Positions 1,470 to 24,817 of a stretch of 32,000 nt of DNA are shown one piece after another. The notes beneath the pieces are model-generated. The model saw only the letters and a program-made list of their open reading frames with translations, was not told the origin of the DNA and searched no databases. Within the stretch, counting starts at the first letter, position 1, and each line of letters begins with the position of its first letter. The stretch comes from Candidatus Brocadia sp. (lineage in GTDB: Bacteria; Planctomycetota; Brocadiia; Brocadiales; Brocadiaceae). The DNA is taken from positions 2,820,001 to 2,852,000 of the forward strand of contig CP091279.1 of NCBI GenBank assembly GCA_021650915.1. The letters are read 5' to 3'. The translations under genes and the position numbers were made by a program.

Positions 1470-1543
1470 CGCGCCCAGGAGGATTTGAACCTCCAACCTC
1501 CGGATTCGTAGTCCGTGACTCTATCCAATTGAGCTATGGGCGC
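1470..1543 (-). tRNA. tRNA-Arg (anticodon ACG); CCA not encoded
   Basis: The reverse complement reads GCGCCCAUAGCUCAAUUGGAUAGAGUCACGGACUACGAAUCCGGAGGUUGGAGGUUCAAAUCCUCCUGGGCGCG. The acceptor stem is GCGCCCA/UGGGCGC, the anticodon loop is CUACGAA (ACG), and the T-arm is GGAGGUUCAAAUCCUCC. It closely resembles E. coli tRNA-Arg(ACG). Confidence 0.93.
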
Positions 1544-19931: not shown

Positions 19932-21335
19932 TTAATAGGCATGTTTATTGATAAATCCATTCCACAGCGTCAGCCATATGATTTTCAGATCAAAATGGAG
20001 TGACCAGTTTTCAATATAATACAGATCGTATTCAATCCGCTTCTCCAACGAGGTATTTCCACGCCAGCCACTAACCTGCGCCCAGCCGGTAATTCCCGCC
20101 TTCATTTTGTGTCGTAACATATATTTTGGAATGGCATTTCTGAAATTGTTTATGAATACCGGCCGTTCCGGCCGCGGCCCGACAATACTCATATCGCCAC
20201 GGAGAACATTGAAAAACTGCGGGAGTTCGTCCAGGCTCGTCCTTCTCAGGAGTTTGCCTATTTTTGTGCACCGGGGATCGTCCCTCTTCGTCCATACGGG
20301 ACCGGATGCCACTTCAGCATCGACTTCCATCGTCCGGAATTTTATCATTTTAAAAATCTTGCCATCCATTCCCATTCGCTCCTGTTTAAAGAAGACCGGT
20401 CCATGGGAAGTTATCTTCGTGAGGAGCGAGATAACTCCGATGAGAGGAGCCGTGCAAATTAACATGATCGTGGCAACAACAATATCCAAAAGCCTTTTCA
20501 CGATGATATTCCATCCATAGAGCGGGGTATCACGAAGGCTAATAAGCGGCATGCCCTCAAACTCACTTACGCTGCCCCGTAAGGTAATAAACTCAAAGAG
20601 ATCGGGTAAAACCATGATGCTTACCATCTCGTCGCCAAGATAATCCAGAATTTCCTTCAATTGATTATGGGCATGAAAAGGCAATGCAACAAACACAATG
20701 TCAATGCCCAGCTTCACAACGAACGAACGGACATCGGAGTATTTTCCCAGCACGCGGATTCCATGCAAAGTATTTCCGATGCGGCTCGGATCATGTGTCA
20801 GGAAACCGGAAATCCGTATTCCAAGTTCCGGATGTTTCCGCAATTTTTTTACCAGGTCTTGCCCAAAATTTTCTGTGCCAAGAATCAATGCATATCTTTG
20901 GTTATATCCCTTTTGCCGTAAAAAGCGTAAAAATTCCCGAAATAAAATGCGAGTCAAACTAAGCGATAGAATATTGATGAGCCAGAAATAAAAGAACGTC
21001 AGTCGGGAAAAATCATATTGACGGAAGAGGAAGGTAAGTGAGATGAGGATGAGGGTGGCAAAAGTCGATGCCTTGGCAATATCTGCAACTTCAGAAAGCT
21101 TAGTCGAAACCCGGCGGGGTCGGTACAATCCAAATATCCGAAAAACTATCCCCCATAAAGGGATCATAAAAATGAGGAGGGTCAGGTATGTTTTAAAGGG
21201 GGGAATCCCTTTAAGAACAGGTACGATGCCCGAGTAAAAACGCAGATAATAAGCCAGCATCCAGGCGCCAGACAAGACGAGCCAATCGGTAAGAAGGAGT
21301 ACTGACTCAAAGAACTTGCTATGTTTCTTTAGCAT
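19932..21335 (-). CDS. Polyprenyl-phosphate glycosyl-1-phosphate transferase (WcaJ/EpsB-type priming sugar transferase)
   Basis: Four to five N-terminal TM helices, a central Rossmann-like region, and the C-terminal bacterial sugar transferase domain (KRLLDIVVA...GPVFFKQERMG..GK.FKMIKFRTM...DELPQFFNVLRGDMSIVGPRPERP). Confidence 0.9.
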   Translation of the reverse strand: MLKKHSKFFESVLLLTDWLVLSGAWMLAYYLRFYSGIVPVLKGIPPFKTYLTLLIFMIPLWGIVFRIFGLYRPRRVSTKLSEVADIAKASTFATLILISLTFLFRQYDFSRLTFFYFWLINILSLSLTRILFREFLRFLRQKGYNQRYALILGTENFGQDLVKKLRKHPELGIRISGFLTHDPSRIGNTLHGIRVLGKYSDVRSFVVKLGIDIVFVALPFHAHNQLKEILDYLGDEMVSIMVLPDLFEFITLRGSVSEFEGMPLISLRDTPLYGWNIIVKRLLDIVVATIMLICTAPLIGVISLLTKITSHGPVFFKQERMGMDGKIFKMIKFRTMEVDAEVASGPVWTKRDDPRCTKIGKLLRRTSLDELPQFFNVLRGDMSIVGPRPERPVFINNFRNAIPKYMLRHKMKAGITGWAQVSGWRGNTSLEKRIEYDLYYIENWSLHFDLKIIWLTLWNGFINKHAY

Positions 21336-21342
21336 AAATGCT

Positions 21343-21364
21343 TTTCAATAGTAACTATTCAGCG
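21343..21364. repeat. Left end of IS: 8-bp target-site duplication TTTCAATA (21343-21350) plus 14-bp IRL GTAACTATTCAGCG (21351-21364)
   Basis: Read directly from the sequence. IRL is the exact reverse complement of 23056-23069, and the flanking octamer is repeated in direct orientation at 23070-23077. Confidence 0.9.
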
Positions 21365-23069
21365 TAATATCGCCCCCTATCGTTACGAGCTGGCAAAATC
21401 AGGCAATTTGCCGCGAAATACCATCCGTAATGCCTGACTTAAATTTACCCCTTGTTTTCGACAAGTCGAGAGATAACTACGGATGAGGCAGAAGATCTTC
21501 GCTCCGTCCAGAGAACGAAAACAGCCCGATATCTTCTGCTGAACCTTCGTCATCCTGATATCGTTTTCGGCCAGGTTATTCGTGAAGGGGACGTTTTTAT
21601 TGTCCATAAATCTGAGCACATCACCCTCATACTCCCGTAATCGTTCCAGGAGATTCCGTGCTTTTGTCCTTTTTACCCGCCCTCTTTTCCCCTTACGGTT
21701 CGTTTCATCAGGGGGCGGGCTTTCAGCTTCTGCGTTTTGTAATATCCCCCGGTACCTTTGCCGGTATTTCTCAGACTCGCCGTTTTCCAACAAACCCCCC
21801 GCATCCTTTACCGCACGGTTTATCTCTTCGAGCAGGGCTTTCATCTCTTTCGCCCACGGTTGCTTCTTATCCTCTTCCCACACCCCCTCCAATTCCCTCA
21901 GGTGGTGTGCATTACAGAGCGCATGTGTACAGCGGGTGTAGGTGTAATACGCCTTCAAATGGTCGTGACAAAGAATCCCCCGAAACTGGGGCAGTATCCC
22001 GATACTATCCATCGCTTCCGTCCCACGTCTTTCGTGAGGGAAAAAGTGTGTCCACAAACTATTGGATGCACTATGCAGCCAATACCTGTCTCCGTTCTTG
22101 TTGATGCTCGTTTCATCTGCCTGCAATACCTCTGATTTGACAAGTTCTTCCTTGGTTTTCCCCTCGAAGGCTTCCAGAGATTCGTAGGCATCCTTGTTAA
22201 AGTTGTAAAGAGAGCCTTCGCTCAGCGGTATCCCCATCTGCTCCTCAAAATACTCCTGGATCCTCTTATTGGGTATCAATTGATACTGTGACATATATAC
22301 TGCGTGCGCTTTCAAATCCGGCCCATACTGCACTGCCTTTGTCACCCCTTCCGGAAATGACGCTACAAACCTACTTCCCTCCGCATCCTCAACTATCTCT
22401 GCCCGATACTCCGTTACCACCCTTGAAATCTTCATATCAAACACCTGACGCGACTCATAACCGATCAACCTGTATTTGCCGCTCGGATACTTCCTCCGGT
22501 CTACTTTTATTACTTCCACCTTATCAGGATTGGCTACCTTTTTCAGCGTTACTCCATCATGACCCTCTTGCCCACCTGCCTTCCTCTCTCCTTTCGCCCT
22601 GCTCTTTCTCGTGCGATTCGGATCGCTTGCGGGCGGCTTACTACTGTTGCGACTGTTCCGGTTCAGACGTCCTACCAGCAGCGTTATCACTAACACCAAC
22701 AACTCTATCATTGACCTTATGGCAGGTGACAGACCTTTTTCCTCTGAAAGCAGCTTTTCTACTTTCCGCAGCGTTGCATCTATATCTATATTCTCTATCG
22801 TCAATGGATGGCACCGGTATTAATAGCCTGAAATCATCTCCTGCGGCTATTATACCACAGGCTTTTTCACCCATTTTTTTCACCCTCTACCGCCCTACAA
22901 AACTCTGTAATTCTCTGGCCGAACATACCCCACACCTCTCTTTGCAAAAACCTCCGATGGGCTACAGTGGCATCCTCCACAGCCATTTATTCTACCAACC
23001 AATTCTACGGCCCCCTTTTCTCATGTTGACTGTCAACTAAATTCTAAAATATTTTCGCTGAATAGTTAC
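21351..23069 (-). mobile_element. IS66-family insertion sequence (single-ORF, ISBst12-like), 1719 bp, apparently intact
   Basis: Perfect 14-bp terminal inverted repeats beginning 5'-GTAA (an IS66-family hallmark), an 8-bp direct target duplication TTTCAATA (the IS66-family TSD length), and one full-length transposase ORF. Confidence 0.9.
21383..22804 (-). CDS. IS66-family transposase (TnpC-type DDE)
   Basis: N-terminal leucine-zipper-like helix; basic linker NSSKPPASDP; DDE-region motifs LQADETSINKNG, ILCHDHLKAY and LCNAHHLRELE; C-terminal FTNNLAENDIRMTKVQQKISGCFRS. All are typical of IS66/ISBst12-group transposases. Confidence 0.9.
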   Translation of the reverse strand: MTIENIDIDATLRKVEKLLSEEKGLSPAIRSMIELLVLVITLLVGRLNRNSRNSSKPPASDPNRTRKSRAKGERKAGGQEGHDGVTLKKVANPDKVEVIKVDRRKYPSGKYRLIGYESRQVFDMKISRVVTEYRAEIVEDAEGSRFVASFPEGVTKAVQYGPDLKAHAVYMSQYQLIPNKRIQEYFEEQMGIPLSEGSLYNFNKDAYESLEAFEGKTKEELVKSEVLQADETSINKNGDRYWLHSASNSLWTHFFPHERRGTEAMDSIGILPQFRGILCHDHLKAYYTYTRCTHALCNAHHLRELEGVWEEDKKQPWAKEMKALLEEINRAVKDAGGLLENGESEKYRQRYRGILQNAEAESPPPDETNRKGKRGRVKRTKARNLLERLREYEGDVLRFMDNKNVPFTNNLAENDIRMTKVQQKISGCFRSLDGAKIFCLIRSYLSTCRKQGVNLSQALRMVFRGKLPDFASS

Positions 23070-24207: not shown

Positions 24208-24322
24208 AATGCAATCTCTTGTTAATTATCGTAGGGATGAATAAAAATAGATAGCTTCGGTAAATCTACGTAAATGATATTTCAAAGTCAAGCGGAAAAA
24301 GTCCTTGTGCTGTTGCTATTTT

Positions 24323-24354
24323 GAAATATTGTAACACTTTAGTTTTTTGAAAAA
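24323..24354. repeat. MITE left end: 8-bp TSD GAAATATT (24323-24330) plus 24-bp TIR GTAACACTTTAGTTTTTTGAAAAA (24331-24354)
   Basis: Read directly. The TIR is the exact reverse complement of 24458-24481, and the octamer is repeated directly at 24482-24489. Confidence 0.85.
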
Positions 24355-24481
24355 GTAGGGGCGAAGCATTTGCCATCTTGGGGTGTGAATACATTTATAC
24401 CAATTTATGGCAAATGCTTCGCCCTTACACCGTGCGGCAACATCGTTATTATGGTAATTTTTCAAAAAACTAAAGTGTTAC
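24331..24481. mobile_element. 151-bp non-autonomous element (MITE) with IS66-like GTAA termini
   Basis: Perfect 24-bp terminal inverted repeats, an 8-bp direct TSD, no coding capacity, and an internal second hairpin (24359-24375 pairs with 24408-24424). Confidence 0.75.
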
Positions 24482-24489
24482 GAAATATT
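24458..24489. repeat. MITE right end: 24-bp TIR (24458-24481) plus 8-bp TSD GAAATATT (24482-24489)
   Basis: Read directly. See the left-end entry. Confidence 0.85.
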
Positions 24490-24613
24490 AATTGTTACAA
24501 AGTGACCTCAGGAATTTGAAAGAAGATTGATATTTCCGGTTGTATGTGATACATTGAGGATCAATATATTGTGTTTTAGAGATGAAAAACAGGTATGAAA
24601 GGAGACGCACATA

Positions 24614-24817
24614 ATGAATCTAACAGAAGCGATTGATATGGTAGCAAAAGACGAACGGGATCTGCAGTTAAAATACACGAAAGTCGCCGATGAGGAAACT
24701 GACCCATTCGTAAAGGCTTTTTTACACAGAATCGTTAAAGATGCAATAAAACATGAAAAGAAGATATATAAGAAATATGAAAAGGTATTGGCTACCTTAA
24801 ACAAGAAGACGTATTAA
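24614..24817 (+). CDS. Small helical hypothetical protein (67 aa)
   Basis: AAAGGAGA lies 8 nt upstream of the ATG. The composition is a charged two-helix type. The opposite-strand ORF 24508..24804 looks non-genic. No family was recognised with confidence. Confidence 0.5.
   Translation: MNLTEAIDMVAKDERDLQLKYTKVADEETDPFVKAFLHRIVKDAIKHEKKIYKKYEKVLATLNKKTY

Follow-up and report, generated by a model that had tools for sequence, protein, structure and literature searches.

We analysed a 32,000-nt stretch of the genome of Candidatus Brocadia sp. (assembly GCA_021650915.1, contig CP091279.1, positions 2,820,001 to 2,852,000 of the forward strand), hereafter called the window, in which a 151-bp element at 24331-24481 lies in the spacer between a GT4 gene and a divergently oriented gene for a 67-aa protein. 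The GTG start of the GT4 gene (24207) is 124 nt from the left end of the element, and 133 nt separate its right end from the 67-aa gene, which starts with ATG at 24614. The element is very probably one copy of a non-autonomous DNA transposon, namely a type II miniature inverted-repeat transposable element (MITE). Specifically, 24331-24354 (GTAACACTTTAGTTTTTTGAAAAA) and 24458-24481 are exact reverse complements of each other, giving terminal inverted repeats that match at 24/24 positions; with up to three mismatches allowed, this 24-mer matched nowhere else in the 32,000-nt window, and the count in 100 shuffles was 0. The octamer GAAATATT is directly repeated just outside both ends (24323-24330 and 24482-24489). 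Between the ends, two 22-nt arms (24355-24376 and 24407-24428) with 95% complementarity form an inner hairpin, and the whole unit folds strongly, both as DNA (-51.5 kcal/mol, z = -10.7 versus shuffles) and as RNA of the minus strand (z = -10.5 versus shuffles), on which TTTTT follows the GC-rich inner stem. The element has no transposase gene, and the open reading frames (ORFs) that overlap it are spurious and at most 49 aa long. These results bear out the structural part of the original prediction, which had been made without database searches and had described perfect 24-bp repeats, an octamer in direct orientation on both flanks, a second strong hairpin, a non-coding body, and distances of about 120 and 130 nt to the two genes. 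The element and its flanks are composed of the following parts.

24323 to 24330 (no strand): left 8-bp target-site duplication GAAATATT, a direct repeat of 24482-24489 that fits nAWWWWTn.
24331 to 24354 (+): left terminal inverted repeat GTAACACTTTAGTTTTTTGAAAAA, 24 nt, which bounds more than 150 elements elsewhere.
24355 to 24376 (+): 5' arm of the inner hairpin, GTAGGGGCGAAGCATTTGCCAT, which pairs with 24407-24428 and forms the conserved core of the largest subfamily.
24377 to 24406 (+): loop of the inner hairpin, variable among aligned copies and inverted in some.
24407 to 24428 (+): 3' arm of the inner hairpin (ATGGCAAATGCTTCGCCCTTAC), recognised by pairing and alignments.
24429 to 24457 (+): asymmetric subterminal spacer (consensus ...CGCTATTATTGGAA), which orients the element and is common to several subfamilies.
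24458 to 24481 (-): right terminal inverted repeat, 24 nt; in other assemblies an intron 3' end abuts between its terminal A and C.
24482 to 24489 (no strand): right target-site duplication GAAATATT, at whose outer edge a deletion in another assembly (L121) ends.

The 24-nt end sequence proved to be abundant. An exact-match scan of one genome per species listed at least 120 stretches and a scan of the JGI metagenomes at least 109 further ones, so that the exact 24-mer is held by more than 229 public genome and metagenome stretches. Among the matches listed, the carriers were mostly Ca. Kuenenia, Ca. Brocadia, Ca. Jettenia and other metagenome-assembled genomes (MAGs) of Brocadiaceae, together with a few MAGs that bear, as depositors' bin labels, the names of other Planctomycetota, Deltaproteobacteria/Syntrophaceae/Desulfobacterales and Deferribacteres. 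Within single genomes, repeat ends numbered at least 101 in one Kuenenia MAG (40 slices) and at least 44 in one Brocadia MAG (19 slices). The 24-mer was absent from viral contigs, where matches of 18 nt were rejected as chance matches inside conserved phage genes, and blastn gave no match in the plasmid collection, a search in which some of the repeat may have been hidden by low-complexity filtering. After pooling of the loci, 152 non-redundant elements with two recognisable ends were obtained, whose lengths (91-374 bp) peaked near 137, 151, 163, 216, 252 and 300 bp. Many MAG contigs terminate inside MITE copies, and Logan short-read unitigs that contain the GT4 gene of the window stop about 150 nt upstream of its start, which is the inner edge of the left repeat.

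One of the labels deserves comment. The 2.7-Mb contig JAOSJV010000001.1 (L051 and L086), labelled Burkholderiales, has 37-39% G+C and shares stretches of 1.5-2.2 kb at 95-97% identity with Kuenenia Bin_40 (L058 and L039). The label looks wrong, and caution is therefore needed in reading the apparent spread of the MITE across phyla.

The flanks of the 152 paired copies carry the signature of transposition. Perfect 8-bp duplications were present at 69 of them and comprised 67 distinct sequences; with up to two mismatches, flanking octamers agreed in 109/149 cases, compared with 0/149 for control octamers taken 12 bases further out. The duplicated octamers were 75% A+T versus a background of 57%, and their consensus was the palindromic nAWWWWTn. 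Measured within single copies, the inverted repeat ended at exactly 24 nt in 123/152 cases, and hence the 24-nt length belongs to the element and not to the query that was used. When insertion points were placed after in silico excision of each element, 10.6% fell inside an open frame of at least 150 codons, compared with 72% of random points in the same loci. Divergent intergenic regions were over-represented (28% compared with 13%). These data show that the 24-bp ends delimit the mobile unit, and that this unit enters AT-rich, mostly intergenic DNA at an 8-bp staggered cut. The original prediction had proposed a non-autonomous MITE with 24-bp ends and an 8-bp duplication, to be checked by copy number, and had taken a single-copy sequence conserved at this locus in distant relatives as the pattern that would contradict it; what we found was a multi-copy family whose members have their own, copy-specific duplications.

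The interiors of these elements are another matter. At least nine subfamilies with two or more copies, plus singletons, had interiors unrelated to one another, and only the 24-bp ends were common to all. Families that have only their terminal repeats in common with a parent insertion sequence (IS) have been classed as type II MITEs (PMC10969869), and in these terms the present subfamilies, with only their ends in common, are type II MITEs. The window copy falls into the largest subfamily, which included 43 of the first 91 elements, from both Kuenenia and Brocadia, and is characterised by a core hairpin, GTAGGGGCGAAGCATTTGCC...GGCAAATGCTTCGCCCCTAC, and by an asymmetric ...ATTATTGGAA spacer at one end; in shorter copies, of about 137 bp, this subterminal spacer is incomplete. 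In 27 aligned Kuenenia and Brocadia copies, the stem arms were nearly invariant and the loop variable, with essentially no covariation (one compensated pair, covariation term -0.14 kcal/mol), indicating that the hairpin is conserved as a sequence and not as an evolving RNA structure. Rfam gave no match to the element at gathering score, and at E values up to 1 only hairpin-type microRNA models at 18-27 bits, compared with gathering scores of 43-245. With neither covariation nor an Rfam family, an RNA-structure reading of the inner hairpin was dropped. Two further kinds of variant were seen. In some copies (L012:983-1119, L030:682-831 and L081:6056-6204), the loop is flipped relative to the asymmetric flanks while the arms are unchanged, and a 36-bp element (L041:7897-7932) consists of two overlapping terminal repeats only (GTAACACTTTAGTTTTTTGAAAAAACTAAAGTGTTAC), representing the minimal form of the family.

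The inner arms begin GTAG...CTAC, and hairpins of the form GTAG-N-CTAC are found in several subfamilies. A conserved GTAG is carried by repetitive extragenic palindromic (REP) elements, and these features would fit a REP/REPIN-type repeat spread by a RAYT (Y1, IS200/IS605-like) transposase. REP/REPIN and IS200/IS605 elements, however, have neither target duplications nor long terminal inverted repeats, whereas here 8-bp duplications are the rule and the 24-bp repeat marks the limits of the mobile unit. No Y1 transposase was noticed beside the copies, though no search aimed at one was made. Spread by a RAYT is accordingly most improbable as an explanation of the family, although the passenger hairpin could be derived from a REP-like module.

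A consensus scan of the spacer in the window predicted one promoter-like site for each of the two genes, both of them outside the MITE.

24263 to 24291 (-): promoter-like site of the GT4 gene (TTGACT-17-TAGATT), from the consensus scan only, 32 nt from the left duplication.
24527 to 24555 (+): promoter-like site of the 67-aa gene (TTGATA-17-TACATT with TG), from the consensus scan.

In other Brocadia species, similarity upstream of the 67-aa orthologue begins at window position 24514 and spans TTGATA-17-TACATT, so that the conserved promoter block of this gene starts 25 nt beyond the duplication. Scanning of the element region revealed no terminator-like site. The suggestion in the original prediction that the element might alter promoter activity here is thus not borne out, since both promoter-like sites and the conserved block are outside it. 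Most likely, the element leaves both core promoters intact and is a near-neutral passenger, and as far as the sequence can tell it would have no regulatory effect. A related proposal, that the sequence is not mobile but a structured regulatory element specific to this locus (a terminator, attenuator, operator palindrome or small RNA), could draw on the very stable hairpin (z about -10.5), the position between divergent genes and the run of TTTTT after the stem on the minus strand. Against it stand the more than 150 copies, which lie at unrelated loci and have individual 8-bp duplications; the lack of an Rfam family at threshold, of covariation and of a terminator-like site; and the lack of conservation of the element in this position among other Brocadia species. 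The copy number and the duplications effectively refute this proposal, and we give it hardly any weight.

The 67-aa gene itself (24614-24817; L129-L136) is restricted to Brocadia-like genomes and is named 'rubrerythrin' by JGI, with no Pfam hit. In other Brocadia species it is located between genes for an M4 peptidase and a cold-shock protein, a different neighbourhood which indicates that the GT4/flavodiiron arrangement of the window is a lineage-specific rearrangement with its breakpoint within 24208-24514.

Assemblies of the same species show four states of the locus. L123 is identical to the window, and L122 has a scaffold gap inside the element. In L124 to L126, the 3' end of a group II intron abuts C/GAAATATT at the right terminus of the element. 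L121 is otherwise 100% identical but lacks a neighbouring IS66 element and has a 60-bp deletion of 24430-24489; the right part of the MITE, the right repeat and the right duplication are lost, the deletion ends exactly at the outer edge of the duplication, and its junctions show no microhomology. The insertion is fixed or nearly fixed in the sampled populations.

The IS66 element that is missing from L121 lies on the far side of the GT4 gene.

21351 to 23069 (-): ISCku5-like IS66 element, 1719 bp, with a single 473-aa PF03050 transposase (Pfam).

Its transposase combines PF03050 with DUF6444, and close relatives are named 'ISCku5 family' by NCBI. It has GTAACTATTCAGCG ends and a TTTCAATA duplication, and the otherwise identical L121 has the corresponding empty site with a single TTTCAATA. 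The IS66 copy is a recent polymorphic insertion, which shows that the resident IS66 family is active here. As a result of the insertion, the GT4 gene has new last codons (...SNYSAKIF* in place of ...EKHLC*) and is separated from an overlapping downstream sugar-transferase gene (19932-21335), and the insertion is probably polar on the GT4/sugar-transferase operon. A relative with 73% transposase identity is present in four copies that have GTAACTATTCAGCG/GTAACTACTCAGCG ends and 8-bp AT-rich duplications (AAATTTTT, AAAATATT, GATTTTAT and GGAGATTA), and all ISCku5-like copies over the range of 73-100% transposase identity retain ends of the GTAACTATTCAGCG type. The original prediction was therefore right in recognising a genuine IS next to the MITE, and its view that this IS is not the direct parent holds, given the stability of these ends. 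In one Kuenenia Bin_40 locus (L017, about 130-205), the end of an ISCku5-like IS66 element (GTAACTATTCAG...) lies within the loop of a MITE, so that the two types of element are nested.

We propose that a DDE-type transposase supplied in trans would bind the two 24-bp ends of the MITE, cut at the GTAAC termini and insert the unit where an AT-rich target (nAWWWWTn) has been cut with an 8-bp stagger, and the GAAATATT duplication would come from repair of this cut. The MITE is unable to move alone, its interior would be hairpin-forming passenger DNA, and the window copy landed in the spacer between two divergent promoters. The cut-and-insert chemistry is assigned here by analogy with established transposon biology, and the family of the transposase from the ends, the duplication length and the target composition. 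For the transposase, the IS66 family is the best candidate, if by no means an assured one, because GTAA(C) ends, an 8-bp duplication and an AT-rich target are also found in the resident IS66 elements; the enzyme is probably not that of the neighbouring ISCku5-like element, because the repeat differs beyond GTAAC. To our knowledge, the combination of GTAA termini with 8-bp duplications marks out IS66, and we could name no other family that has it. IS66 elements have been described as having a 20-30-bp repeat starting with GTAAGCG and 8-bp direct repeats (PMC11946415). The original prediction had read the GTAA/TTAC termini and the 8-bp duplication as an IS66 signature; these and a co-resident IS66 element are present, but the repeat has no GTAAGCG start, and no associated PF03050 gene was found in the repeat-bearing loci.

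Several observations weigh against this explanation. With regard to the insertion event, no empty site was found in same-species assemblies, all of which carry the element or a break in it; the exact 32-mer expected for the empty site (GTTGCTATTTTGAAATATTAATTGTTAC) was absent from the JGI metagenomes; and other Brocadia species, in which the 67-aa gene is elsewhere, have no orthologous intergenic region for an empty-site comparison. We nevertheless consider the insertion real, because its duplication is intact and the family behaves in this way everywhere. With regard to the interior, the arms are far more conserved than the loop, which hints at a constraint that a pure-passenger view leaves unexplained. 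With regard to the transposase, the MITE repeat, 24 bp long and starting with GTAA, reads GTAACAC and not the canonical GTAAGCG of IS66; the ends of the resident IS66 elements start with GTAAC as well. The search for a parent, which combined repeat pairing, tblastn, a hidden Markov model of the IS66 DDE domain and clustering of adjacent ORFs and was limited to 8-kb slices around the repeat hits, revealed no full-length element with the MITE repeat in about 230 loci (about 1.5 Mb) and no PF03050 gene between or beside MITE-type ends in these repeat-bearing loci, of which only three had an IS66-type transposase at all, namely ISCku5-like copies and a fusion gene in L210. Finally, the MITE repeat and the ISCku5-like repeat agree at only about 9 of the first 12 positions and at 14/24 overall.

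Candidates for a parent that did appear in this search were all rejected. All long repeat pairs (0.7-8 kb), which might have been full-length IS elements, enclosed ordinary host genes and lacked matching duplications, and when GTAA...TTAC pairs in general were screened for a perfect 8-bp duplication, only the IS66 element of the window came up. A 2.2-kb block ending at the repeat in L013 and L057 was traced to two contigs of one MAG that are 100% identical over 7952 bp, and it encodes a coiled-coil protein and is not an IS. Clustering of the ORFs next to solo ends gave no recurrent transposase. The fusion gene in L210, which encodes an 812-aa protein with RecB-like/RNase_H_2 and IS66-DDE parts, was discarded as a partner; the MITE is inserted in its 3' end, with the duplication AAATTTTT, and MITE-type ends are lacking from full-length relatives of this gene, which lie on contigs of about 2.9 kb and 65 kb.

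These findings bear on three other sources of the transposase. First, the MITE may be mobilised by an enzyme outside IS66, such as a transposase of another family with 8-bp duplications (ISL3, IS256 or IS1595-like) or an undescribed or domesticated non-IS enzyme. This would agree with the lack of an IS66-type gene inside any repeat pair in the 1.5 Mb of loci, with the lack of a GTAAGCG start, and with a 24-mer that is identical in MAGs labelled as different phyla while the resident IS66 elements keep another repeat; the GTAAC end, duplication length and AT-rich target shared with resident IS66 argue the other way, and we consider a non-IS66 enzyme possible but doubtful. Second, the resident ISCku5-like transposase may cross-mobilise the MITE through GTAAC and a loose inner similarity. 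ISCku5-like elements are the only IS66-type elements seen near MITEs (in the window, L017, L018, L049 and L060), they have the same terminal pentanucleotide, duplication length and AT-rich targets, and the right-hand repeat of the copy with 73% identity matches the MITE repeat at 14/24 positions by eye. Their repeat, however, is stable (GTAACTATTCAGCG) across 73-100% transposase identity, and the MITE repeat, which differs from it, is just as stable; some MAGs with MITEs belong to lineages in which no ISCku5-like element was seen; and the surroundings of MITEs show no enrichment of ISCku5-like copies, which occurred at 4 loci in about 1 Mb. Cross-mobilisation thus seems unlikely. Third, and with about as little likelihood, the family may be an orphan cassette shared across phyla, in which identical ends repeatedly capture unrelated hairpin modules and which spreads among anammox bacteria and co-resident anaerobes without a conventional parent IS. 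If so, the transposase would be rare, be carried by a plasmid or phage, or be a domesticated, non-IS enzyme of the chromosome. Mobilisation in trans by an IS66-type transposase other than the ISCku5-like one remains our preferred explanation.

The L210 gene belongs to a widespread family of fusion proteins of about 900-950 aa (L210:2876-5314; relatives P0162-P0281, L246 and L247:5001-7688), in which an RNase_H_2 domain (PF13482) and an IS66 DDE domain (PF03050) are joined to a TM0106/RecB-like region. Members frequently lie on contigs of about 2.9-4.5 kb, in the manner of large single-ORF IS elements, and by source names they occur in both bacteria and archaea (Methanoperedens, Methanoregula, Ignavibacteriales and Chloroflexi). 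The gene in L247 has GGCTGAAACCT(A/G)GCGTT repeats on its flanks that are direct and not inverted, and the Brocadia copy (L210) is truncated by the MITE insertion.

We also found that the MITE terminus can itself be occupied by another mobile element. In two independent copies, a group II intron, supported by Rfam models RF02005 (D1-D4, 114 bits) and RF00029 (domain V/VI, 48-50 bits), separates GTGTTA from the terminal C of the MITE end. One is a 648-nt ORF-less intron of Kuenenia Bin_40 (L059:5708-6355, minus strand), of which both junctions are visible; the other is at the window locus in L124:1-214, L125:1-186 and L126:1-28, where the intron 3' end ...CTACTCGAC abuts C-GAAATATT at a point corresponding to 24481/24482. 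These two independent sites suggest that the MITE end may be a homing site of the intron. Mobile elements thus nest on the MITE terminus, and the intron offers a testable case of a retroelement targeting the end of a DNA transposon.

The start of the window carries ordinary RNA genes, namely a bacterial large signal recognition particle (SRP) RNA (169.8 bits) and tRNA genes Ser-GGA, Ser-CGA and Arg-ACG.

212-479, 494-586, 837-928 and 1470-1543 (minus): SRP RNA and three tRNA genes, unrelated to the MITE.

Anammox bacteria are not in pure culture and are studied almost entirely by assemblies, and a repeat present at a hundred or more copies per genome explains many of the contig breaks in these assemblies. 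The MITE family also provides a practical marker for strain typing. Its preference for AT-rich and often divergent-promoter regions makes it a plausible source of regulatory variation between strains, although nothing at the window locus suggests such an effect. If the identity of the ends across phyla is real and not a binning artefact, it would point to a horizontally shared transposase in anoxic nitrogen-cycling communities. Three features of the family are noteworthy: identical ends around unrelated interiors in MAGs whose depositors' bin labels name several phyla, a missing parent, and an intron in the terminus at two copies.

Our search of the searchable literature gave no description of this MITE family, of MITEs in anammox bacteria (Kuenenia, Brocadia), of the repeat sequence or of ISCku elements. 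The familiar families of bacterial MITEs include the Correia elements of Neisseria and the pneumococcal RUP elements. Like bacterial type II MITEs, the elements described here are short (91-374 bp) and non-coding, have terminal repeats and a duplication of fixed length, occur in tens to hundreds of copies, prefer intergenic DNA and fold back strongly; unlike them, they have no parent IS that we could find, and one identical 24-bp repeat frames many unrelated interiors. The MITE has every structural feature of the class except an identified parent. With the single-ORF IS66 group represented at 21351-23069, which was recently active in the same genomes, it shares GTAAC ends and an 8-bp AT-rich duplication, but it is non-coding and its repeat departs from GTAACTATTCAGCG beyond position 5 and from GTAAGCG. 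It resembles REP/REPIN sequences in being an abundant, intergenic, GC-rich hairpin whose inner arms start with GTAG, and differs from them in having 24-bp terminal inverted repeats and 8-bp duplications.

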